A stretch of DNA of 13,657 nucleotides from a virus. Shown here piece by piece: positions 2,701 to 13,482 of this stretch. Made by a program: the position numbers and the translations under genes. Where the stretch lies: UHGV virus genome UHGV-0069434, one strand, 5' to 3'. Each line of letters starts with the position of its first letter. The stretch's first letter is position 1. Below the pieces are notes generated by a model that was given only the letters and a program-made list of their open reading frames with translations, had not been told where the DNA came from and searched no databases.

Positions 2701-2748
2701 TTTGCTGCTCCTCATCATATCGACCCTGCAAGGTCGGTTGGTTTCTCC

Positions 2749-2837
2749 ACAAAACAGAGAAGAACACCTGCGGTGACTGCCGCCCGGATGGATTGGGTTA
2801 TGAGCCCGTCGTCCGGTGATTCTCTTCTCTGTTTTGT
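2749..2837. repeat. Perfect 15-bp inverted repeat (ACAAAACAGAGAAGA at 2749..2763; TCTTCTCTGTTTTGT at 2823..2837) separated by 59 bp, in the leader upstream of the yfdP-like gene
   Basis: Read directly from the sequence; the arms are exact reverse complements. The spacer contains further short inverted repeats (CCGG-rich). Confidence 0.6.
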
Positions 2838-3308
2838 AAAAAGAGCGGTACCAGCCGGAAGCAAGGGTACAAACTGGTACCGCCAAAGCAGTGGCTGTTG
2901 TGGTGGGGTTGTCACTCAGGCGTATGGTCAACCTGACAATCCGGTGCCCTCAACGGGGAAAGAGTAACCCCGCCATACTTACCGCCGCGCCATTTCGCGG
3001 ATTACCACAACGCTGAGAGCACTTAGCCAGTTACGGCACCACACTTTGTCGCGGCTCCATAAATGCCCTCATCGTTGCACCCTGGTCTCTTCCCAGGCGT
3101 CAAACCGAATCGCCACGCTGGTTAGGCGTCTTATCAGCATCATCATTGACTTGCACATTCCGGCTACCTGGTTTGTTTGCCCGAGCAAGGAGTGGATTGT
3201 CCCCTTTAACGTCCCCAGACCGCTAACGACGCATGTGCCATACGCCGTGTTACAACCAAATTTTGTTAGTACCTTGTTTGTTTGTCTGGAAAGAAAGATA
3301 AAATGAAG

Positions 3309-3323
3309 TTGCGCATTATGCAA
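3309..3323. promoter_or_regulatory. Operator site OL-a: TTGCgcattatGCAA (TTGC-N7-GCAA palindrome)
   Basis: 15-bp site with palindromic ends read directly; the same architecture recurs at 3333..3347 and 4092..4106, flanking the repressor gene on both sides. Confidence 0.5.
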
Positions 3324-3332
3324 GTGTTTTTG

Positions 3333-3347
3333 TTGCGAGATATGCAA
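3333..3347. promoter_or_regulatory. Operator site OL-b: TTGCgagatatGCAA
   Basis: Second copy of the TTGC-N7-GCAA motif, 9 bp from OL-a. Confidence 0.5.
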
Positions 3348-3361
3348 TTTAAAGGGTAATG

Positions 3362-3383
3362 AAAAGCCACCTTTGGGTGGCTA
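3362..3383 (-). terminator. Intrinsic terminator downstream of the cI-like repressor gene
   Basis: Minus-strand transcript: AGCCACC-caaa-GGTGGCT hairpin (7-bp GC-rich stem) followed by TTTTCATT, about 20 nt after the repressor stop codon (3403..3405). Confidence 0.5.
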
Positions 3384-3402
3384 ATTGATGAGGAGGTAAG
3401 GG

Positions 3403-4071
3403 TTAATTGTGTCGCTTAAGGGTTTGTGACCGTCTGATTAAGACCTTTCCAAAGACCATAAACCGGTGTTCATTTTCGCTGGTAATTCCCCATTCACGGT
3501 AAATCTGGTTATCAGAAATCACCAGTAGTTTGTCAGGTATCATTTGCAGTCGTTTGACATAAATTTTATCATCAAAACCAAATACATAGATACCATCTCC
3601 ATCAAACTGATTGATACTGACATCAACGAAGATGAGATCTCCTGGCTCAATGGTTGGACACATACTGTCCCCACGAACGTTGATAACTTTAATGTGATTG
3701 GCTGGCCGTCCGCCAAACATCGATACAGCATTATCAGTTCTGTATTCAATGGCATGAATCACATCAATGACATCACCGCCCTGGATAAGGCCATTTCCCG
3801 CACTGGCACTGACATCCAGCATTTCAATACGGAATACATCCTTCACCTGCGCAACATCCTCACTAATACTGTTTTTACATACAGTATTACTTTTGACGTC
3901 TGAGGTAAAGAGATCAGCAATATCAACACCTAAGCTCCTGGCAATATTACTCAGGGCTTGTTCAGTGAATTGTTTCTGCTTACCTGTTTCCAGTCCTATT
4001 GCTTCAGCGAGATCGGCGATTTTCATGTTCTTCGCCTGGCGAAGTTGTCTGACTCGGTTTCCTATGTTCAT
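3403..4071 (-). CDS. cI-like prophage repressor, 222 aa: N-terminal XRE-type HTH plus C-terminal S24 (LexA-like) autopeptidase domain
   Basis: N-terminus NRVRQLRQAKNMKIADLAEAIGLETG is a typical HTH; C-terminus has the S24 motif VRGDSMCPTIEPGDLIFVD and a candidate Ala-Gly cleavage site (SASAGNG). Divergent from a cro-like gene, with operators on both sides. Confidence 0.85.
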   Translation of the reverse strand: MNIGNRVRQLRQAKNMKIADLAEAIGLETGKQKQFTEQALSNIARSLGVDIADLFTSDVKSNTVCKNSISEDVAQVKDVFRIEMLDVSASAGNGLIQGGDVIDVIHAIEYRTDNAVSMFGGRPANHIKVINVRGDSMCPTIEPGDLIFVDVSINQFDGDGIYVFGFDDKIYVKRLQMIPDKLLVISDNQIYREWGITSENEHRFMVFGKVLIRRSQTLKRHN

Positions 4072-4168
4072 GCGTTTATTACATTTCTTTATTGCGCGTT
4101 AAGCAAATCAACTTGCGCAAAATATTTGCGTGAAATAATATGCTCATCACGCAATATGTGGAGGTCAT
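4072..4168. promoter_or_regulatory. OR region with divergent promoters (pR-like rightward for cro; pRM-like leftward for the repressor)
   Basis: Perfect operator TTGCgcgttaaGCAA at 4092..4106; palindromic TTGCGCAA at 4113..4120; weaker ATGCtcatcacGCAA at 4140..4154. Rightward: -35 TTGCGC (4113..4118), 17 nt, -10 TAATAT (4136..4141), then GGAGG before cro ATG 4169. Leftward: -35 TTGCTT (rc of 4101..4106), 17 nt, -10 TGTAAT (rc of 4078..4083), which places the start at or next to the repressor ATG (leaderless, as for lambda pRM). Confidence 0.5.
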
Positions 4169-4429
4169 ATGCAATCACCATTACGGAATATGCGTAAGGC
4201 GCACGGATTTACTTTGCAGCATGTTGCTGCTGGCGTTCAGGTCAATCCAGCGACGCTGAGTCGTATTGAAAGACTGGAACAAATTCCATCTATCGATCTT
4301 GCAGAACGTCTGGCCAATTTTTTTAAGGGTGAAATCAGCGAAATGCAGATTCTTTATCCGGCACGTTTTCAATCTAGCCAAAACCAGAATGGGTTTAAAC
4401 CACAGGAACAGGAGGTAAGCCGTGGGTAA
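4169..4429 (+). CDS. Cro-like HTH (XRE family) regulator, 86 aa
   Basis: ORF track; HTH signature GFTLQHVAAGVQVNPATLSRIERLEQIPS; divergent from the repressor; GGAGG 4 nt upstream of ATG. Confidence 0.75.
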   Translation: MQSPLRNMRKAHGFTLQHVAAGVQVNPATLSRIERLEQIPSIDLAERLANFFKGEISEMQILYPARFQSSQNQNGFKPQEQEVSRG

Positions 4430-4973
4430 TCATCACTGGAAAGTGGAAAAACAGCCTGAGTGGTACGTGAAAGCTGTCAGAAAAACTATCGCGGCGTTGC
4501 CGGGGGGTTACGCTGAAGCTGCTGAGTGGCTGGATGTAACAGAGAACGCATTATTTAACCGCCTTCGTGCCGATGGCGATCAGATTTTCCCGCTGGGATG
4601 GGCAATGATTTTACAACGTGCTGGTGGCACTCACTTCATTGCCGACGCTGTGGCGCAGTCTGCAAATGGCGTCTTTGTGTCTCTTCCTGACGTCGAGGAT
4701 GTGGACAACGCCGATATTAACCAGCGCCTGCTGGAAGTCATTGAACAGATTGGCAGTTATTCCAGACAGATTCGTTCGGCAATCGAAGACGGTGTGGTGG
4801 AACCGCATGAGAAGACAGCAATTAACGACGAGCTGTATCTCTCAATTTCGAAGCTGCAGGAGCATGCAGCACTGGTCTACAAAATCTTCTGCGCTCCAGA
4901 AAAGAGTAACGCCCGCGAGTGTGCAGCTCCGGGCGCCGTGGCGTGTCGTGACTGTGGAGAAACTAACGCATGA
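4422..4973 (+). CDS. CII-like early regulatory protein, 183 aa
   Basis: GTG start with GGAGG about 7 nt upstream; overlaps cro stop. Region [36 protein letters not shown] resembles the HTH and following helix of lambda CII as I recall it; position immediately after cro fits. Confidence 0.55.
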
Positions 4974-5308
4974 ACAGTTTAACAACACACTACCGTCGCT
5001 CGCAACTGATTGCGCTTCCTGTACCGGGTGGAAAAGCGAAGGTGGAGTATTGCTATGCAGTAAATGTACCAGGTGACAGGGAAATTGTAACCCACAGCTT
5101 TGCTGAGTGGGCTGTGGGAGATTTCAACCGGCAGAAGGAGACAGTCCTTTGCGACAAGTTAACCGCTGGTTCAAAGATCACTACGGAGTGCCCGTCAGAG
5201 TCATTCGTTGGGAGCCGGAAACACAACGAGTTATCTACCTCCGCGAAGGCTATGAGCATGAGTGCTTCAGCCCGCTCGAACAGTTTCGTCGTAAATTCAG
5301 GGAAATAG
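4970..5308 (+). CDS. Hypothetical protein, 112 aa in track; the N-terminal roughly 60 aa look protein-like, the C-terminal half is Ser-rich low complexity
   Basis: ATG overlaps the preceding stop (ATGA). The compositional change after about residue 60 coincides with the start of a better-looking ORF in another frame (5149..5328). Confidence 0.4.
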
Positions 5309-5328: not shown

Positions 5329-6175
5329 ATTAACCGGCTATGTATGGGATGGTTGCGCTGCGTCAGGCATGAAATTATCCAGCGTGGCAATTATGGCCCG
5401 CCTGGCTGATTTCAGTAATGACGAAGGTGTGTGCTGGCCATCAATTGAAACTATTGCCCGTCAGATTGGCGCGGGGATGAGTACCGTCAGAACGGCTATC
5501 GCACGGCTGGAAGCAGAAGGCTGGTTAACGCGTAAGGCGCGTCGCCAGGGTAACCGCAATGCGTCGAATGTTTATCAGCTTAACGTTGCGAAGCTTCAGG
5601 CAGCGGCATTTTCTCAACTGTCAGATTCTGACCCGTCAAAATCTGACGCATCAAAATCTGACACGTCAAAATTTGATGTGTCGAAATCTGGCAAAAAAGC
5701 GGGTTTTCACCCGTCAGAATCTGGCGGGGATCCGTCAGTAAAATCAAAACAAGATCCACAAGTAACTTCAAAACCCTCTTGTCCGGTTGCGGCGCAACCC
5801 GACCCTGAAGTTGTGATTACCGACCAGGCAATTTTGGTTCTGACCCATTTGAACCAGATCAGCGGATCCCGGTATCAGAAATCAAAAACATCCCTGGAGA
5901 ACATCCGCGCCCGACTGCGTGAGGGATACAGCGTTGCAGACCTGCAACTCGTTATCGACCTGAAGCATGAGCACTGGCACGAGAACGACGAGCAGTACCA
6001 GTACATGCGGCCGGAAACGCTGTTTGGCCCGAAGAAATTCGAGAGCTATCTGCAAAGCGCTACCCGCTGGGATCAGAAGGGACGGCCTAAACGCGCTGAC
6101 TGGGGTGCGAAAAAGCGCGATGTGATGGCTTTTGGTCCGGTTGATACAACGATTCCAGAGGGGTTCAGAGGATGA
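5318..6175 (+). CDS. Phage replication initiator / replisome organiser (lambda O-like role), 285 aa
   Basis: N-terminal HTH-like region (VAIMARLADFSNDEGVCWPSIETIARQIGAGMSTVRTAIARLEAEGWL). C-terminal region (LTHLNQISGSRYQKSKTSLENIRARLREGY...HEHWHENDEQYQYMRPETLFGPKKFESYLQSA) resembles the conserved phage replication-protein C-terminal domain. Tandem iterons lie inside the gene. Confidence 0.7.
   Translation: MSTKLTGYVWDGCAASGMKLSSVAIMARLADFSNDEGVCWPSIETIARQIGAGMSTVRTAIARLEAEGWLTRKARRQGNRNASNVYQLNVAKLQAAAFSQLSDSDPSKSDASKSDTSKFDVSKSGKKAGFHPSESGGDPSVKSKQDPQVTSKPSCPVAAQPDPEVVITDQAILVLTHLNQISGSRYQKSKTSLENIRARLREGYSVADLQLVIDLKHEHWHENDEQYQYMRPETLFGPKKFESYLQSATRWDQKGRPKRADWGAKKRDVMAFGPVDTTIPEGFRG
5621..5726. 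repeat. Tandem 15-bp iteron-like direct repeats (core GTCAAAATCTGAC), putative phage origin of replication inside the initiator gene
   Basis: Read directly: CCGTCAAAATCTGAC (5633..5647), GCATCAAAATCTGAC (5648..5662), ACGTCAAAATTTGAT (5663..5677), GTGTCGAAATCTGGC (5678..5692), plus partial copies at 5621..5632 and 5711..5725. Each core has internal dyad symmetry (GTCA...TGAC). The repeats encode SKSD-type peptide repeats and generate the repetitive ORF artefacts at 5559..5771. Confidence 0.55.
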
Positions 6176-7071
6176 CGTTAAACAAATATTGCCAGGCGCT
6201 GGCGGCACTACGTAGCAAACCAGCCCACCAACTGAAAGAAGTTGGCGATCAGTGGCGGACGCCGGATCTGCTTTTTTGGGGGATCAACGCGCTATTTGGT
6301 CCATTAGTTTTGGACTTGTTTGCAGACGACGACAACGCGAAATGCCCGGTATGGTACACCGCCGAAGATAACGCGCTGGTGCAGGATTGGGCGGAAATGT
6401 TGGATTCAATCGGCGGGGCCGCATTCGGTAATCCACCCTATAGCCGCTCTCAGTACCACGAGAAACAGGCGATCACCGGCATGACCCACATCATGGATCA
6501 CACAATGGAGATGCGTGAAAAGGGTGGGCGTTATGTGTTCCTCATTAAAGCGGCGACAAGTGAAACATGGTGGCCGGAAGACGCCGATCACATCATGTTT
6601 ATTCGCGGTCGCATTGGTTTCGATCTCCCTGTGTGGTTTGTTCCTGCCGACGATAAGCAGAAACCCACAGGTGCTTTCTTTGCTGGTGCAATCGCTTTGT
6701 TCGACAAGACCTGGCGCGGCGAGCGTTTCAGCTACATCAGCCGTACCGATCTGGAGGAAAAAGGGAAGGCGTTTATGTCACTGGTCGAATTTGCCGCGGG
6801 AAAGGTTCAGCCACCAGCCACCATGGTGCCAGAGCAAGAAGAACCCATTGTAGCGCCAGCAGTATTACCTGATGTGGATTCGCGTATCTGGCCGCTTGAG
6901 GTTGGTCTGGTGTTCAACCAGGTTGAGGGGGCGGATTCTCTGGACGCATCGCAGCAGAACAAGCTGAAAGCGAACATTAACCAGCTGTGGCTTGAGCGTA
7001 TGCCAACCAGCGAAATCATTACTACTGCTGGTGGACTGGTCAGCAGCATGCAGGGGGCCATCAATGCGTGA
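6172..7071 (+). CDS. Phage-type N6-adenine DNA methyltransferase (phage Dam family), 299 aa
   Basis: LDLFADDDNAKCPVWYTAEDNALVQDWAEM...FGNPPYSRS matches the phage N6A-methyltransferase family signature including the NPPY catalytic motif. ATGA overlap with the replication gene stop. About 100 aa of C-terminal extension beyond the usual domain size. Corresponds in position to the yfdM fragment of CPS-53. Confidence 0.8.
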   Translation: MTLNKYCQALAALRSKPAHQLKEVGDQWRTPDLLFWGINALFGPLVLDLFADDDNAKCPVWYTAEDNALVQDWAEMLDSIGGAAFGNPPYSRSQYHEKQAITGMTHIMDHTMEMREKGGRYVFLIKAATSETWWPEDADHIMFIRGRIGFDLPVWFVPADDKQKPTGAFFAGAIALFDKTWRGERFSYISRTDLEEKGKAFMSLVEFAAGKVQPPATMVPEQEEPIVAPAVLPDVDSRIWPLEVGLVFNQVEGADSLDASQQNKLKANINQLWLERMPTSEIITTAGGLVSSMQGAINA

Positions 7072-9061
7072 GATTATCGTTGATAACTTTGCTGGTGGCG
7101 GTGGCGCATCAACGGGTATTGAACTGGCGATCGGGCGCAGCGTGGATATTGCGATCAACCACGACGAAAACGCCATTGCGATGCACAAGACGAACCACCC
7201 GGACACACTGCATTACTGCGAATCCGTGTTTGACGTGGATCCGGTAGCCGCCACTGGCGGTAATCCTGTCGGCCTGGCATGGTTTAGCCCGGACTGCCGA
7301 CATTTCTCGAAGGCCAAAGGCGCAAAGCCTGTGAAAAAAGAGATACGCGGTCTTGCCTGGATTGTTCTGCGTTGGGCACTGGCGAAGCGACCGCGCGTGA
7401 TGATGCTGGAGAACGTGGAAGAGTTCAAAACGTGGGGACCGTTAATTGACATCCCGCCTAAACCTGATTTGCCGGAAGCCCTTATGGCGGATTTTATTGG
7501 CCCGGTTTACCCTGGAAATAGTCGCCCAGACCCTGCCCGCACTGGAGAAACATTCAATGCATTTGTCGGCATGCTGTCCACTGGCATTCCTGCTGATCAC
7601 CCGGCACTGTCAGAGGTTTGTGAGTTTCTGTCTATTGAAAGAGGTAGCGAGCAGGCGCAACAGTTGGTGGATGGGCTTGGATATGATGTCGATTATCGCG
7701 AACTGCGCGCGTGTGATTACGGCGCGCCGACGATCCGCAAACGCTTCTTCATGGTCATGCGCTGCGATGGTTGTCCAATCCAGTGGCCTGCTGTTACCCA
7801 TGGGGATCCTAAGTCTCTGGAGGTGCAGAGCGGCAGGCTGATGCCATGGCGTACCGCTGCGGAATGTATCGACTGGAATGTTCCGGCCCTGTCCATCTTC
7901 GACCGCAAAAAACCGCTGGCGGAGAACACTCTGAAGCGGATCGCGCGCGGCATACAGCGCTTTGTTATCGAAAGTGCGTCGCCGTTTATCGTGAAGTGTA
8001 ACCACACAAGCTCAAAAAATTCGTATGACGCTTTTCGCGGGCAGTCGCTGAATGAGCCATTACAGACCATTACTAAAAAACTCGGCTACGCGTTAGCCGT
8101 TCCACACCTGACAAAATTCCGCACTGGCGCAACCGGGCAGCCCGTTACCGAACCAGTCCCGACGGTAACCGCTGGCACATCAAAACGTCCAGGTGGGAAT
8201 GGGCATGCACTCGGGATTGTTGAGGCTGCACTGACGCCATTCCTGGCGGGTAATGGCGGGAGTGAATACCAGGCTAAACCGCGCCCGCTGGATAAACCTG
8301 CTCATACCATTCTGAAGCAATCCCGCGCCTGTCTTGTTGCGCCAGTGATAGCCCGCCAGTTTGGGGCCAGCGTAGGCCATCGGGCAGACGAACCGAGCGC
8401 AACCATCACCGCTGGCGGTGGCGGTAAATCTCAACTGGTAACGCCTACGCTGATCCAGATGGGTTATGGCGAACGACCTGGACAAGAACCGCGTGTGCTG
8501 CGGCTGGATAACCCGCTGGGGACCGTTACTGCAGGTGGAAATAAATTCGCGACGGTGAGCGCGTTTCTGGCGAAACACTACGGCGGTAACTACACGGGAC
8601 CGGGTGTCAGTATGGATGAACCCGCGCACTCAGTGACCACTGTCGACCATCATGCAGTAGTTGCCTCTCATCTGGTGAAACTGCGTGGAACATGCCGCGA
8701 CGGGCAGCGCCTTGATGTACCTATGCCAACCATCACCGCTGGAGGCCAGCACGTGGGTGAGGTGCGCACATTTCTCGAGACATATTGCGGGGAAAGTGAC
8801 GATGAATGGCTGGTAACGATCAATGGGGTTAAATACCAGATCGTTGATATCGGAATGCGCATGTTGCAGCCGCATGAACTCTACAAAGCGCAGGGCTTCC
8901 CGGATGGATACGTTATTGATCAGGACTACCGTGGAAATCGCTATGCAAAAGATAAGCAGGTAGCCCGCTGCGGTAATGCGGTACCACCACCATTCGCCAG
9001 GGCGCTGGTGGAGGCAAATCTTCCGGAACTTTGTGCAGTGCAACAACAGGAGGTGGCATGA
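7064..9061 (+). CDS. DNA cytosine-5 methyltransferase, 665 aa, with expanded repeat-containing variable region
   Basis: Motif I DNFAGGGGAS; Cys motif WFSPDCRHFS (PCQ-like variant); motif VI MMLENV; later QGFPDGY and CGNAVPP (motif X-like). I take ATG at 7064 (MREIIV..., G-rich SD, 8-nt overlap with upstream stop) rather than the track's upstream extension from 6992. Confidence 0.8.
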   Translation: MREIIVDNFAGGGGASTGIELAIGRSVDIAINHDENAIAMHKTNHPDTLHYCESVFDVDPVAATGGNPVGLAWFSPDCRHFSKAKGAKPVKKEIRGLAWIVLRWALAKRPRVMMLENVEEFKTWGPLIDIPPKPDLPEALMADFIGPVYPGNSRPDPARTGETFNAFVGMLSTGIPADHPALSEVCEFLSIERGSEQAQQLVDGLGYDVDYRELRACDYGAPTIRKRFFMVMRCDGCPIQWPAVTHGDPKSLEVQSGRLMPWRTAAECIDWNVPALSIFDRKKPLAENTLKRIARGIQRFVIESASPFIVKCNHTSSKNSYDAFRGQSLNEPLQTITKKLGYALAVPHLTKFRTGATGQPVTEPVPTVTAGTSKRPGGNGHALGIVEAALTPFLAGNGGSEYQAKPRPLDKPAHTILKQSRACLVAPVIARQFGASVGHRADEPSATITAGGGGKSQLVTPTLIQMGYGERPGQEPRVLRLDNPLGTVTAGGNKFATVSAFLAKHYGGNYTGPGVSMDEPAHSVTTVDHHAVVASHLVKLRGTCRDGQRLDVPMPTITAGGQHVGEVRTFLETYCGESDDEWLVTINGVKYQIVDIGMRMLQPHELYKAQGFPDGYVIDQDYRGNRYAKDKQVARCGNAVPPPFARALVEANLPELCAVQQQEVA

Positions 9062-9444
9062 AACTTGTGCTCCCGTTCCCTCCGAGCGTGAACACTTACT
9101 GGCGCGCCCCTAACAAGGGGCCGCTGGCCGGTCGTCACCTCATTAGCGCTGATGGCCGTAAATACCAGAGCGCTGCCTGCGTGGCGATCATTGAGCAATT
9201 ACGACGTCTCCCGAAGCCATCGACTGAACTGGCAGCGGTAGAAATCACTCTGTACCCGCCGGATGCGCGCCGCCGGGATATCGATAATTACAACAAAGCC
9301 CTGTTTGACGCGCTGACACATGCGGGTGTCTGGGAAGACGACAGCCAGATTAAGCGCATGCTGGTGGAATGGGGACCCGTTGTGCCGAAAGGTCGGGTAG
9401 AGATAACGATCAGCAGATATGAACCGGCGGGTGCAGCCGCCTGA
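9058..9444 (+). CDS. rusA: Crossover junction endodeoxyribonuclease RusA (Holliday junction resolvase), 128 aa
   Basis: MKLVLPFPPSVNTYWR...DARRRDIDNYNKALFDALTHAGVWEDDSQI matches the RusA family (PPS-N-xYW N-terminus, catalytic Asp cluster). ATG at 9058 with GGAGG upstream and ATGA overlap with the methyltransferase stop; the track's upstream extension is rejected. Confidence 0.85.
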   Translation: MKLVLPFPPSVNTYWRAPNKGPLAGRHLISADGRKYQSAACVAIIEQLRRLPKPSTELAAVEITLYPPDARRRDIDNYNKALFDALTHAGVWEDDSQIKRMLVEWGPVVPKGRVEITISRYEPAGAAA

Positions 9445-9457
9445 TATGGAGAAAAGT

Positions 9458-10144
9458 ATGAGCCAGTTAATCGTGAATGGTGTTGTAACAATGTCCAGCC
9501 GTGATATTGCGGATCTGGTTCAGAGTAAACACAGTGACGTGAAACGCTCGGCTGAGCGTCTTGTTGCTGCGGGAATTTTAACCGCGCCGTTGGCGCAGTT
9601 CGATTTTGAGCATAACGGTAATGTTTACCAGGAGTATCGTTTTAACAAACGCGACTCTCTGGTGATTGTTGCCAGACTGTCACCTGAATTTACCGCCGCG
9701 GTTGTCGATCGCTGGCAGGAACTGGAAGAAGGGCAGAGTGTCAGTGTTCCCCGCTCATTGCCGGAAGCGCTTCGCCTGGCTGCTGATTTAGCCGAGCAGA
9801 AAGAGCAACTGACCATCCAGCTGGCAGCTGCGGCGCCAAAAGTGGAGTTTGTTGATCGTTATTGCTCTGCAAAAGGCTCCATGTCATTCCGGCAGGTAGC
9901 CAAATTGCTCAACGCAAAAGAAACTGAGTTCCGCCTGTTCCTTATTGAACGCAATATCCTGTATCGCCTCGGCGGCACACTTACCCCTATGGCGCAGCAC
10001 ATTTCCGCGGGAAGATTTGAAGTTAAGACGGGAACATCGAGCACATCCAATCACGCATTTAGCCAGACGCGTTTCACTGCCAAGGGAGTACGCTGGATTG
10101 GTGGTTTGTGGGCTGAACATATTGCAGGGGGACAGGCGGCGTGA
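9458..10144 (+). CDS. Phage antirepressor, 228 aa: Rha-type N-terminal domain plus KilA-C/ANT C-terminal domain
   Basis: N-terminus VTMSSRDIADLVQSKHSDVKRSAERL...YRFNKRDSLVIVARLSPEF is typical of Rha; C-terminus FRQVAKLLNAKETEFRLFLIERNILYRLGG is KilA-C-like. Start at ATG 9458 (GGAG 6 nt upstream) preferred over track start 9419. Confidence 0.75.
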   Translation: MSQLIVNGVVTMSSRDIADLVQSKHSDVKRSAERLVAAGILTAPLAQFDFEHNGNVYQEYRFNKRDSLVIVARLSPEFTAAVVDRWQELEEGQSVSVPRSLPEALRLAADLAEQKEQLTIQLAAAAPKVEFVDRYCSAKGSMSFRQVAKLLNAKETEFRLFLIERNILYRLGGTLTPMAQHISAGRFEVKTGTSSTSNHAFSQTRFTAKGVRWIGGLWAEHIAGGQAA

Positions 10145-12429: not shown

Positions 12430-13482
12430 ATGAAAAATACTGTAAAAATAAACAGTGTTGAGTTAATCAACGCTGATAGCCTGCATTACGTCGCCACCCT
12501 CCCGGATAACTCTATTGATCTGATAGTTACGGATCCTCCGTACTTCAAAGTGAAGCCCAACGGCTGGGACAACCAATGGAAGGGGGACGAGGACTACTTA
12601 CGCTGGCTTGATAGCTGCCTGGCTGAGTATGCTCGCGTTCTTAAACCTGCTGGCAGCATCTACCTGTTTTGCGGTCATCGACTGGCCTCAGACATAGAGA
12701 TTATGATGCGTGCCCGGTTCAACATTTTGAATCACATCATCTGGGCAAAGCCATCGGGCCGCTGGAATGGTTGTAACAAAGAAAGCCTGCGCGCGTATTT
12801 TCCATCAACGGAACGGATTTTGTTTGCTGAGCACTATCTTGGGCCGTACACAGGTAAAGAGGATGTTTACGAAAGGAAAAGCACAGAGCTAAAGCAGCAT
12901 CTTATGACGCCACTGATTGACTACTTCCGTAATGCCCGTGAATCACTGGGTGTCAGCTCGAAAGAAATAGCTGAGGCAACCGGAAAGAAAAACATGGCGT
13001 CACACTGGTTTGGTGCAAGCCAATGGCAACTACCAAATGAAGTGGACTATAGAAAATTGCAGGAACTGTTCACGAGGATCGCTATCGATAAGCACATTCA
13101 GCAGAAGCTTGAACATCCTCACCACCAGCTGGTAGCCACCTATCAGTCATTAAACCGCAAGTATTCAGAATTGCTGGAGGAATACAAAACCCTCCGGCGC
13201 TGCTTCTCTGTTTCCGTTCTTGTTCCGTATACCGACGTATGGACGCATAAGCCTGTTCAGTTTTATCCAGGCAAACATCCATGCGAAAAACCTGCCGACA
13301 TGCTGAAGCAGATCATTAGCGCCAGCAGCAGACCGGGGGATATCGTTGCCGATTTCTTTATGGGCTCTGGTTCAACTGTGAAAGCTGCAATAGAACTTGG
13401 TCGTCGGGCGATCGGCGTAGAACTGGAAACCGACAGGTTTATTCAAACCACCGAAGAGGTGGAAAAACTCAACAAAACATAA
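12430..13482 (+). CDS. Beta-class amino-methyltransferase, probably N6-adenine (motif IV before motif I), 350 aa
   Basis: N-terminal SIDLIVTDPPYF (DPPY motif IV) and C-terminal DIVADFFMGSGSTVKAA (FxGxG AdoMet motif I), with a roughly 200-aa intervening target-recognition region. Weak SD at the ATG. Confidence 0.8.
   Translation: MKNTVKINSVELINADSLHYVATLPDNSIDLIVTDPPYFKVKPNGWDNQWKGDEDYLRWLDSCLAEYARVLKPAGSIYLFCGHRLASDIEIMMRARFNILNHIIWAKPSGRWNGCNKESLRAYFPSTERILFAEHYLGPYTGKEDVYERKSTELKQHLMTPLIDYFRNARESLGVSSKEIAEATGKKNMASHWFGASQWQLPNEVDYRKLQELFTRIAIDKHIQQKLEHPHHQLVATYQSLNRKYSELLEEYKTLRRCFSVSVLVPYTDVWTHKPVQFYPGKHPCEKPADMLKQIISASSRPGDIVADFFMGSGSTVKAAIELGRRAIGVELETDRFIQTTEEVEKLNKT

Follow-up and report, generated by a model that had tools for sequence, protein, structure and literature searches.

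The 13,657-bp stretch of viral DNA analyzed here (the window) likely carries the immunity module of an SfV/ST64B-like lambdoid prophage of the mEp460/SfII group, in a form whose operators are intact and whose repressor appears to have been disabled by a 24-bp deletion. As we picture the module, a CI-type repressor and a divergently encoded Cro would share 15-bp WTGC-N7-GCAW operators at 4092, 4113, and 4140 in OR and at 3309 and 3333 in OL, and the repressor mRNA would start leaderless at its ATG and end at a terminator before OL. The region corresponds to the cI–OR–cro/OL module of the mEp460/SfII/ST64B group, which more than 1,000 complete E. coli genomes carry and which is annotated as cI/cro in mEp460, PhiR63_1, SfII, and Stx2a phages. 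The same repressor, cro, and operators as in the window are found in mEp460, SfII, PhiR63_1, and Stx2a_1447 at 90 to 96% DNA identity and in ST64B at 79%; mEp460 and PhiR63_1 are 95 to 96% identical to the window DNA and have identical operators. The original prediction, which was made from the window alone, had missed the presence of the module in named phages (mEp460, SfII, and ST64B-like).

Arrangement of operators, promoters, and genes

The features that make up the module are as follows; the promoters are read from the sequence.

3295 to 3323, minus strand: predicted PL (-35 TTGCAT at 3323..3318, 17-bp spacer, -10 TATCTT at 3300..3295)
3309 to 3323: OL operator nearest the promoter, TTGCGCATTATGCAA, an exact match to the motif
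3333 to 3347: second OL operator, TTGCGAGATATGCAA, an exact match, its center 24 bp from the center of the first
3355 to 3382, minus strand: intrinsic terminator after the repressor gene, a hairpin (3382..3365) followed by a T-rich tail
3403 to 4071, minus strand: repressor gene, 222 amino acids (aa), with an N-terminal helix-turn-helix (HTH) that bears the deletion and a C-terminal S24 autopeptidase domain
4078 to 4106, minus strand: predicted PRM (-35 TTGCTT at 4106..4101, 17 bp, -10 TGTAAT at 4083..4078, 6 nucleotides [nt] to the ATG)
4092 to 4106: OR site A (OR3-like), TTGCGCGTTAAGCAA, spanning the -35 and spacer of predicted PRM
4113 to 4127: OR site B (OR2-like), TTGCGCAAAATATTT, overlapping the -35 of predicted PR
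4113 to 4141, plus strand: predicted PR (-35 TTGCGC at 4113-4118, 17-bp spacer, -10 TAATAT at 4136-4141)
4140 to 4154: OR site C (OR1-like), ATGCTCATCACGCAA, one mismatch to the strict motif
4169 to 4429, plus strand: cro-like gene, 86 aa, HTH_3, with the Shine-Dalgarno sequence GGAGG at 4160-4164
4422 to 4973, plus strand: CII-like regulator (Phage_CP76, YmfL; Pfam)

Sites A, B, and C all fall in the 97 bp that separate the divergently oriented repressor and cro genes. Beyond the repressor gene, a second operator cluster, two exact sites overlapping predicted PL, lies in a conserved arrangement. The -35 hexamers of predicted PR, PRM, and PL are all built on the TTGC half-site of the operators (for PL it is the right half of 3309..3323, read on the minus strand as TTGCAT at 3323..3318), so bound repressor would block all three. 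Sites B and C would serve to block PR, and the OL pair to block PL; at high repressor occupancy, site A would also shut off the repressor's own promoter, PRM. The original prediction had placed the operators over the -35 and -10 elements of divergent promoters, and sites A to C do cover elements of predicted PRM and PR.

All relatives with this OR layout (27 of 30 loci) have site A, its center varying from one to another. Site B combines a left half, TTGCGCA(A), that hardly varies in the family with a degenerate right half, leaving a half-site in this phage; full sites with one mismatch occupy this position in Kp4874, Flotzy, and two further relatives (L014 and L019). Site B is predicted to be weak and to rely on cooperative binding. 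Site C spans the last part of the PR -10 together with the predicted point of transcription start, and the A at its first position is conserved in all relatives because it belongs to the PR -10; both PR hexamers are conserved among relatives. On the other side of the repressor gene, the OL sites are spaced 22 to 24 bp at the same position in E. coli, Shigella, Salmonella, Klebsiella, and Citrobacter relatives, and the relatives' OL regions repeat TTGCnn-17-TATCTT, TATCAT, or TAATTT. The hairpin and T-run after the repressor gene lie at the same place in nearly all relatives and are annotated as a terminator in SfII. Shine-Dalgarno pairing at cro is -10.2 kcal/mol. A search for known RNAs gave no Rfam match in the window at gathering thresholds.

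A conserved LexA box within the repressor reading frame

The C-terminal half of the repressor matches Peptidase_S24 (Pfam PF00717, E=6e-19) and has its Ala-Gly site at Ala91-Gly92 (3801..3796), both as originally predicted. Ser136 (in GDSM, 3666..3664) and Lys173 (3555..3553) complete the set of residues that, with A91-G92, are invariant across the repressor family. The original prediction drew a link to SOS from the Ala-Gly site; besides RecA-stimulated autocleavage, that link may run through a conserved LexA box inside the gene, which the first reading overlooked.

3867 to 3886: LexA (SOS) box, TACTGTTTTTACATACAGTA, within codons of the repressor inter-domain linker
3881 to 3909, minus strand: candidate LexA-controlled promoter (-35 TTTACC at 3909..3904, 17 bp, -10 TACTGT at 3886..3881)
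3403 to 3846, minus strand: candidate nested in-frame open reading frame (ORF), 147 aa (GTG at 3846..3844, Shine-Dalgarno sequence GAGGA at 3861..3857)

The box has 17 of 20 matches to the TACTGT-N8-ACAGTA consensus, with both the CTGT and the ACAG core. About 28 of 33 family members share it, codon position and phase included; the outgroups compared lack it. Down to ~46% identity it is the island of maximum conservation in a variable linker, with its ACT and AGT codons fixed, and its sequence in SfII and three other relatives (L011, L013, and L017) is exactly that of the K-12 umuDC operator. The candidate promoter, with a predicted start near 3874, has the layout of the umuD promoter (TTGATC-17-TACTGT); across loci, the internal sense promoter scored a mean of 6.6 with a heuristic position weight matrix and at least 4 in 24 of 25 loci, against a background 99th percentile of 4.5. 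The nested GTG lies 12 to 15 residues before the Ala-Gly site in the repressor family. The predicted product would have a UmuD-like layout, its tail of 15 residues being followed by the Ala-Gly site and the S24 domain. Shine-Dalgarno pairing at this GTG is -6.8 kcal/mol, versus -0.6 at the full-length ATG. The GTG is found in 23 of 27 box-bearing relatives (background, 11.5%) and is missing from the three box-less relatives, and the Arg codons beside it are AGA or AGG in 12 of 13 cases versus 97 of 351 elsewhere. In the window, the candidate nested unit is intact whereas the DNA-binding domain is destroyed.

That the box, the Shine-Dalgarno sequence, and the GTG are kept together and lost together suggests that the C-terminal domain alone may be encoded by a nested gene inducible by SOS. 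We propose tentatively, with confidence just short of even, that the repressor frame holds a second, SOS-controlled gene with a LexA-repressed promoter in the linker whose -10 is formed by the left arm of the umuDC-type SOS box, a Shine-Dalgarno sequence made of rare purine-rich codons, and a GTG start. DNA damage would then yield a lone C-terminal oligomerization and autopeptidase domain, a UmuD-like protein, that could form mixed, non-binding dimers with the full-length repressor and so act as a built-in antirepressor; alternatively, it could modulate RecA-dependent cleavage of the repressor.

It is also possible, if somewhat doubtful, that there is no nested gene and that the box is a relic of the fusion of an HTH to a umuD-like gene together with its operator, or a roadblock, or the control element of an antisense promoter. 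Sequence searches of the PDB place the C-terminal domain closest to UmuD, and the match of the box to the umuDC operator fits a relic, but a relic would not be expected to stand out as the best-conserved part of a linker that varies down to ~46% identity, and the Shine-Dalgarno sequence and the GTG come and go with the box. Two box-bearing relatives without the GTG (L025 and L040) speak for the absence of a nested gene. A possible antisense -10 scored a mean of 3.5 and at least 4 in 11 of 25 loci; we set aside an antisense LexA-controlled promoter, since these scores are lower and less consistent than those of the sense promoter.

Several candidate parallels to the proposed nested gene were considered and dropped. 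Hex of phage 434 is a separate downstream ORF and not an in-frame C-terminal product; the svsR small RNA of prophage NC-SV, at the 3' end of a cI gene, has no link to this locus; and the free-standing C-terminal-domain genes among the relatives are uninformative, being a decayed pseudogene (L039) and a rearranged copy (L042). The literature searched contained no arrangement in which a LexA box lies within a repressor reading frame as part of a same-frame module.

A 24-bp deletion in the recognition helix

Comparison with intact relatives located the deletion, which the first reading had not noticed, at a single junction.

3993 to 3994, minus strand: junction of the 24-bp in-frame deletion in the repressor gene

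Eight residues are lost, VDAANISR, which correspond to the HTH turn and the first six residues of the recognition helix, including the part that contacts bases; by alignment to the 434-type domain the deletion maps to helix 3. Four of these residues (D28, N31, S33, and R34) are invariant in the family, and the Pfam HTH_3 score of the window repressor is 19.5, under the cutoff of 23. Unlike the window, mEp460, SfII, PhiR63_1, Stx2a_1447, and ST64B have an intact 230/231-aa repressor. Judged by homology alignment, the deleted repressor is very probably unable to bind its operators: these are intact, and a repressor without its recognition helix would almost certainly be non-binding. Since that helix is lost, the switch is probably dead in this copy, and the SOS-inducible switch of the original prediction is not supported for it, as no working switch would be left to induce. 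The window copy can probably not confer immunity by itself, owing to the deletion, and probably represents a loss-of-immunity allele, whether of a clear-plaque-type phage, of a prophage maintained in trans by another copy, or of a decaying one.

The deletion was found in none of 1,040 complete E. coli genomes, in none of 80 IMG/VR contigs (the matches of that scan are all 99 to 100% identical copies), and in none of ~30 species-level relatives. The gene call of the contig starts at Met16 and gives a 207-aa form rather than the 222-aa ORF; in that form, the deleted allele occurs on no other contig of the collection. The contig is a 13.7-kb metagenome assembly with a k-mer coverage of ~2.9x, and with so few reads behind it the deletion could be an error or a minority variant. 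We nevertheless regard it as unlikely that the deletion is an assembly or sequencing artifact or a minority variant and that the real phage has a 230-aa repressor and a working switch. The low coverage and the lack of a second example favor such an artifact; a clean in-frame loss of 24 bp without a flanking repeat is atypical of short-read or de Bruijn graph error, and the same gene has two further unique nonsynonymous changes (SQ to RR, at 3431 and 3433) in an otherwise invariant motif, with no synonymous ones. The latter pattern fits a gene that is no longer under selection.

A predicted leaderless repressor transcript

A gap of 6 nt separates the repressor ATG at 4071 from ATTACA at 4078-4083, which reads TGTAAT on the opposite strand; no Shine-Dalgarno sequence precedes this ATG. 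The geometry TTGCnn-17-TnnAAT-6/7-ATG with weak Shine-Dalgarno pairing recurs in 27 of 30 loci, and the 3 loci without it have strong Shine-Dalgarno sequences in its place. The e14 ymfK promoter, TTGTAC-17-TTTAAT-6-ATG, has the same geometry as predicted PRM, and leaderless repressor mRNAs have precedents in lambda cI, e14 ymfK, racR, and dicA, that of ymfK being leaderless by differential RNA-seq (dRNA-seq) (PMC4681348). The conserved geometry, the missing Shine-Dalgarno sequence, and the ymfK layout give good backing to the leaderless transcript of the original prediction, and transcription of the repressor gene most likely begins with the A of the start codon.

An mRNA with a leader, made from a promoter farther upstream (such as TCCACA-16-TATTAT or a CII-dependent one to the right), or a true start at Met16, seems improbable to us. 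The TGTAAT -10 lacks the usual A at position 2 and was missed by a consensus promoter scanner, whose minus-strand call was instead TCCACA-16-TATTAT (4162..4135); in addition, both the metagenome gene caller and the annotators of mEp460 picked downstream starts. Yet TnnAAT is fixed at 6 to 7 nt from the ATG in the 27 loci, and the e14 promoter, likewise without A2, is experimentally leaderless. The first 15 residues show conservation at the protein level, and several relatives have Ile or Leu at position 16, which argues for the ATG at 4071 and not Met16 as the repressor start. One variant of the leadered arrangement would have the ATG used without a Shine-Dalgarno sequence. Besides the leaderless transcript that we favor, an establishment transcript with a leader could coexist, as lambda has a leadered establishment transcript alongside its leaderless repressor transcript.

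The proposed operator sequence is conserved beside the repressor gene

The motif coordinates and sequences given in the original prediction were all exact: strict copies at 3309, 3333, and 4092, ATGC-N7-GCAA at 4140, and TTGCGCAA at 4113. The raw motif count is mildly unusual, with three exact copies of TTGC-N7-GCAA in the whole window versus 0.70 expected and 11 of 200 shuffles reaching three. The weight of the evidence lies in placement around the repressor rather than in number, as all four matches to WTGC-N7-GCAW in the 13,657 bp fall inside ~210 bp flanking the repressor gene, where ~0.07 would be expected at the relatives' background rate (0.32 per kb). A search of other genomes, which had been suggested with the prediction, found the motif enriched beside the repressor across 30 related loci that span repressor identity down to ~46%: its density reaches 14.4 per kb in OR and 5.95 per kb in OL against 0.32 per kb in the rest, an enrichment of ~45-fold and 19-fold, respectively. 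Operator positions are kept among these relatives and the central bases differ. In a branch at ~50% identity, the recognition helix reads VGNLSRLERG, versus AANISRLETG, and the outer base of the site is changed (ATGCG-N5-CGCAT). Helix 3 of the Cro-like protein, PATLSRIERLEQ, resembles that of the intact repressor, AANISRLETGKQ.

From these patterns we infer that the TTGC-N7-GCAA and WTGC-N7-GCAW sites are operators shared by the CI-type repressor and Cro. The original view of a lambda-like immunity region that has an operator sequence of its own is supported. It is highly improbable that the repeats are chance palindromes or host-factor sites, for although their count across the whole window is weakly significant, they cluster, are conserved across genera despite varying centers, track the repressor gene across differing genomic contexts, and match promoter hexamers.

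Implications for immunity groups and prophage induction

Taken alone, the operators and the leaderless promoter would make one more lambda-type switch. About one in five complete E. coli genomes carry this immunity group, which includes Stx2a, Stx2k, and Shigella serotype-converting phages. We found no description of the operators of the mEp460/SfII/ST64B group in the published literature; start sites and the LexA box are likewise missing from the annotations and papers examined for mEp460, SfII, PhiR63_1, Stx2a_1447, and ST64B. A description of operators and promoters is useful because the group is so widespread and its operator specificity is absent from that literature, and the WTGC-N7-GCAW motif lets immunity groups and cross-immunity be predicted from sequence. 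The deletion teaches that reading a regulatory module from sequence requires checking the regulator as well as the sites. If functional, the umuDC-type box, Shine-Dalgarno sequence, and GTG would be a new wiring of prophage induction to the host SOS response, with an antirepressor-like product encoded inside the repressor gene.

Comparison with known switches

The lambda switch consists of cI, OR1-3, OL1-3, PRM, PR, PL, cro, and cII, with 17-bp operators. The window resembles it in its divergent repressor and cro genes; in three OR sites, two over PR and one over PRM; in an operator cluster at PL; in an HTH and S24 repressor with Ala-Gly, Ser, and Lys; in a CII-type gene after cro; and in the 6-nt distance between the -10 hexamer and the ATG, a spacing also seen at lambda's leaderless PRM. 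It differs in that its sites are 15 bp and of unrelated sequence, its OL has two sites, rexAB is missing and the repressor gene forms a monocistronic unit closed by a separate terminator, its CII belongs to the CP76/YmfL type, OR site B amounts to a half-site, and the repressor gene contains a LexA box.

HK022 (X16093) has annotated 15-bp palindromic potential repressor sites, three in OR and two in OL, with overlapping promoter hexamers, and the C-terminal domain of its repressor is ~51% identical to that of the window. Its sites are instead TGAAC-N5-GTTCA, the protein match is confined to residues 73-220 and leaves out the N-terminal domain, and its linker has neither a LexA box nor an internal Shine-Dalgarno sequence and start.

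In e14 of E. coli K-12, the adjacent genes ymfL and ymfM match the window at 94% identity beginning at ~4394, and the ymfK promoter shares the -35/17/TnnAAT/6/ATG layout with an operator over its -35. The ymfL annotation suggested e14 immunity, which we rejected: to the left of ~4394 there is no DNA similarity, and the repressor and Cro proteins give no meaningful alignment. The e14 pair (ymfK/ymfT, or cohE/croE) are other proteins with other operators, and since repressor, Cro, and operators all differ, the window and e14 belong to different immunity groups; e14 served here solely to calibrate the promoter geometry.

With umuDC the window module shares the 20-bp box, identical in several relatives, as well as the -35/17/TACTGT layout and a similar distance from box to start. 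The Tum protein of phage 186 and the antirepressors of N15 and Gifsy are controlled by LexA, and the logic of the nested gene would resemble such an SOS-induced antirepressor. In contrast to umuDC and to the LexA-controlled antirepressors of phages (PMC3121763), the module described here lies inside the repressor's own reading frame and is read in the same frame.

Gene content and relatives of the region

The window spans the whole of metagenome contig ENA ERZ773225 NODE_3602 (13,657 bp, k-mer coverage 2.9), on which an SfV/ST64B-like lambdoid prophage is represented by its early region. Its gene order from left to right is yfdQ homologue, yfdP homologue, repressor, cro, CII(CP76)/YmfL protein, YmfM-like ORF, replication protein, three DNA methyltransferases, RusA, Rha/ANT protein, DUF968 protein and Q. 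Segment 3000-4700 shares 95-96% identity with phages mEp460 and PhiR63_1 and ~90% with Shigella phage SfII, in all of which the matching genes are annotated cI and cro. Among 5,426 complete E. coli genomes, 1,037 carry a copy spanning at least 80% of this segment. The e14 immunity region was rejected as a counterpart because e14 similarity begins only at ~4394 (ymfL), where a mosaic junction marks the end of cro, and its repressor and Cro are unrelated to those of the window.

The YmfM-like ORF spans 4970-5308, and the K-12 record describes YmfM as a cell division inhibitor. The Rha/KilAC (ANT) antirepressor-type gene lies far downstream (9419-10144), and this single early region holds Dam-type, C5-cytosine and N6_N4 DNA methyltransferase genes (6172-9061 and 12430-13482). 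An interval of ~590 bp without called genes (2701-3290) separates predicted PL from yfdP (2338-2700), the nearest leftward gene; the matching stretch of mEp460 has small annotated plus-strand ORFs, and an Rfam search of the window at gathering thresholds returned no match. This interval could house a leader, terminator or antitermination element.

Proposed operators and predicted promoters

The original prediction placed TTGC-N7-GCAA operators on both sides of the repressor gene. Every one of its operator coordinates was correct on re-reading the sequence, and the observation is confirmed. The predicted switch is arranged as follows, with promoters named after their λ counterparts.

3309-3323 and 3333-3347, OL pair, beyond the 3' end of the repressor gene
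3323..3295, minus strand, predicted PL: -35 TTGCAT (3323..3318), 17-nt spacer, -10 TATCTT (3300..3295)
4071, minus strand, repressor ATG; rightward of it 6 nt, ATTACA (reverse complement TGTAAT) and 8 nt, then site A
4106..4078, minus strand, predicted PRM: -35 TTGCTT (4106..4101), 17-nt spacer, -10 TGTAAT (4083..4078)
4092-4106, site A of OR; 6 nt separate it from site B
4113-4127, site B of OR; left half TTGCGCA(A) almost invariant in the family, right half degenerate
4113-4141, plus strand, predicted PR: -35 TTGCGC (4113), 17-nt spacer, -10 TAATAT (4136-4141)
4140-4154, site C of OR; followed by GGAGG and the cro ATG (4169)

The TTGC half-site doubles as the -35 element in all three predicted promoters, and the PL hexamers are kept among relatives. 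Because operators and promoters overlap in this way, sites B and C would be expected to shut PR, the OL pair to shut PL, and site A to shut PRM, which is the logic of OR1/OR2 against OR3 in λ. A conserved intrinsic terminator closes the repressor gene ahead of OL. Helix 3 is alike in Cro (ATLSRIE) and the intact repressor (ANISRLE), a likeness that fits operators shared by both proteins.

Across the window, TTGC-N7-GCAA occurs three times against 0.70 expected, and at least three copies arose in 11 of 200 shuffles. This count is only mildly unusual. The position of the sites is decisive: the relaxed pattern WTGC-N7-GCAW has four matches in the contig, all of them sites named in the original prediction and all inside ~210 bp flanking the repressor gene. 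Relatives of the repressor were drawn from phage records plus one genome per species, with protein identities from 97% to ~46% (Salmonella ST64B, Klebsiella, Citrobacter, Kluyvera, Pantoea, Erwinia, Proteus, Yersinia and others). The sites are enriched at OR and OL, with their positions kept.

Density of WTGC-N7-GCAW in 30 related loci
OR (125 bp upstream of the repressor): 14.4 matches per kb
OL (140 bp downstream of the repressor): 5.95 matches per kb
Remainder of the loci: 0.32 matches per kb

Site positions are constant while the central bases vary, and in relatives whose recognition helix reads VGNLSRLERG, as opposed to AANISRLETG, the sites turn into ATGCG-N5-CGCA(A/T). Such behavior is expected of real operators. 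A fourth operator-like sequence, ATGCGTAAGGCGCAC, lies at 4190-4204 in cro codons 8-12; at the corresponding position ST64B, Klebsiella phage Kp4874-4 and phage Flotzy have an exact WTGC-N7-GCAW match. The sole OR/cro difference between the window and E. coli 120899 is the first base of this sequence (A4190; G in the relative). Coding constraint alone could explain conservation here.

The repressor start codon and a predicted leaderless transcript

Judged from the sequence, ATG 4071 is the true repressor start. The protein sequence of residues 1-15 is conserved, I3, G4, R6, R8, L10, R11 and K14 being invariant; several relatives have Ile or Leu at residue 16, and an in-frame TAA lies nine codons upstream of the ATG. 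Records place the start differently: the protein has 207 aa in the metagenome gene call (start at 4026), 215 aa in mEp460, and 230 aa in both SfII and RefSeq. The lack of a Shine-Dalgarno sequence at the true ATG is the probable reason. Predicted anti-Shine-Dalgarno pairing is -0.6 kcal/mol before ATG 4071 versus -10.2 for cro.

The arrangement TTGCnn-17-TnnAAT-6/7-ATG is retained in 27 of 30 family loci; the other three have strong Shine-Dalgarno sequences in its place. The e14 ymfK promoter (TTGTAC-17-TTTAAT-6-ATG) has the same geometry as predicted PRM, and the ymfK, racR and dicA mRNAs are leaderless by differential RNA-seq (PMC4681348). Taken together, the retained geometry, the weak pairing and the ymfK precedent support well the predicted leaderless repressor transcript, which is ordinary among prophage repressors, with the caveat that the PRM -10 is without the usual A at its second position and was not called by a consensus scanner.

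Probable loss of the recognition helix in the window copy

The repressor is 229-231 aa long in all relatives versus 222 aa in the window, because 24 bp are absent between 3993 and 3994. Four of the lost residues (VDAANISR) are invariant in the family: D28, N31, S33 and R34. In the 434 repressor, base contacts are carried by helix 3. When aligned by HMMER with a 434-repressor-type domain (PDB 1sq8), VDAANISR falls opposite VDQQAIEQ, which covers the turn and the first part of helix 3; read in this way, the in-frame deletion takes out the HTH recognition helix.

The deletion was found in none of 1,040 complete E. coli genomes carrying the repressor gene, whose best matches are identical save for the 24-bp gap, nor in any of 80 IMG/VR contigs, any species-level relative or any other contig of the gene-position collection. 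Apart from the gap, the gene departs from the nearest E. coli copy only by two neighboring non-synonymous changes (3431 and 3433), both unique, which convert SQ to RR in the family-invariant C-terminal LISQSQ motif (LIRRSQ); there are no synonymous differences. The operators are unchanged. If the contig is correct, the repressor would be unable to read them and the switch would not work in cis. The low coverage of the contig leaves some chance that the deletion is an artefact or a minority variant, which we consider improbable without being far-fetched. The interpretation as a λ-like switch holds for the phage family but not for the window copy.

A LexA box and a candidate nested gene inside the repressor gene

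A scan scored against the 20-bp LexA consensus identified TACTGTTTTTACATACAGTA (3867-3886; 17 of 20 positions) within the linker codons between the two repressor domains. In about 28 of 33 family members the box has an identical codon position and phase, and it forms an island of maximum conservation amid a variable linker, with Thr always ACT and Ser always AGT. The umuDC operator of E. coli K-12, as read from the genome, is matched at all 20 positions by the box of SfII and of three other relatives. The repressor sense strand carries a candidate promoter, TTTACC-17-TACTGT (3881-3909), compared with TTGATC-17-TACTGT at the K-12 umuD promoter; a simple promoter score at the candidate reaches 4 or more in 24 of 25 loci (background 99th percentile, 4.5). 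PDB sequence searches match the C-terminal domain to UmuD, not to LexA or λ CI.

An in-frame GTG lies 20-32 nt past the box and 12-15 residues ahead of the Ala-Gly site, preceded by a Shine-Dalgarno-like sequence (pairing -6 to -12 kcal/mol). This combination is present in 23 of 27 box-bearing loci versus 11.5% of other in-frame NTG codons. The Shine-Dalgarno sequence is made up of variable Gly, Arg, Glu and Asp residues, and Arg is encoded by AGA/AGG in 12 of 13 adjoining codons versus 97 of 351 elsewhere in the gene. The Shine-Dalgarno sequence and GTG are likewise missing from the three box-free family members (Yersinia phage 30.14 and two Dryocola prophages), and none of the three elements was found in the outgroup S24 repressors examined (HK022, P22-type C2 and others from Providencia, Mannheimia, Xenorhabdus, Gilliamella, Kingella and Acinetobacter). 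Across the family, the box, Shine-Dalgarno sequence and GTG are conserved together and lost together. The simplest reading of these sequences is a putative nested, LexA-repressed gene for the C-terminal domain alone, which in the window would be

3861-3844, candidate nested ORF start: Shine-Dalgarno GAGGA (3861..3857), GTG 3846, encoding 147 aa

Our preferred guess is that the nested protein would poison repressor dimers, serving as an antirepressor built into the gene; modulation of RecA-dependent cleavage is an alternative role. It is also possible that the LexA box is a relic, acts as a roadblock or controls an antisense promoter.

Loci from Rouxiella, Pseudescherichia and Buttiauxella (L023, L024 and L025) have a different upstream region with a strong Shine-Dalgarno sequence and no TnnAAT-6-ATG, and few or no WTGC-N7-GCAW sites, yet retain the intragenic LexA box. 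They are a natural contrast group for the leaderless/operator and LexA-box hypotheses. A second good LexA box, TACTGTAAAAATAAACAGTG (12438-12457; 16 of 20), begins 9 nt inside the N6_N4 DNA methyltransferase ORF (ATG 12430), downstream of Q, and could indicate either an accessory ("moron") gene under SOS control or a wrongly called start codon.

Relationship to known switches

The literature searched contained no description of a LexA box and nested start inside a repressor gene; 434 Hex, the nearest match, was rejected as a precedent because it is a separate downstream ORF. HK022 has the closest studied architecture, its record listing 15-bp sites with three at OR and two at OL, whereas its site sequence differs (TGAAC-N5-GTTCA). 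The immunity group is common but apparently uncharacterised. As a λ-type switch, the region belongs to a known type; the embedded SOS module, if functional, would set it apart from known λ-type switches.
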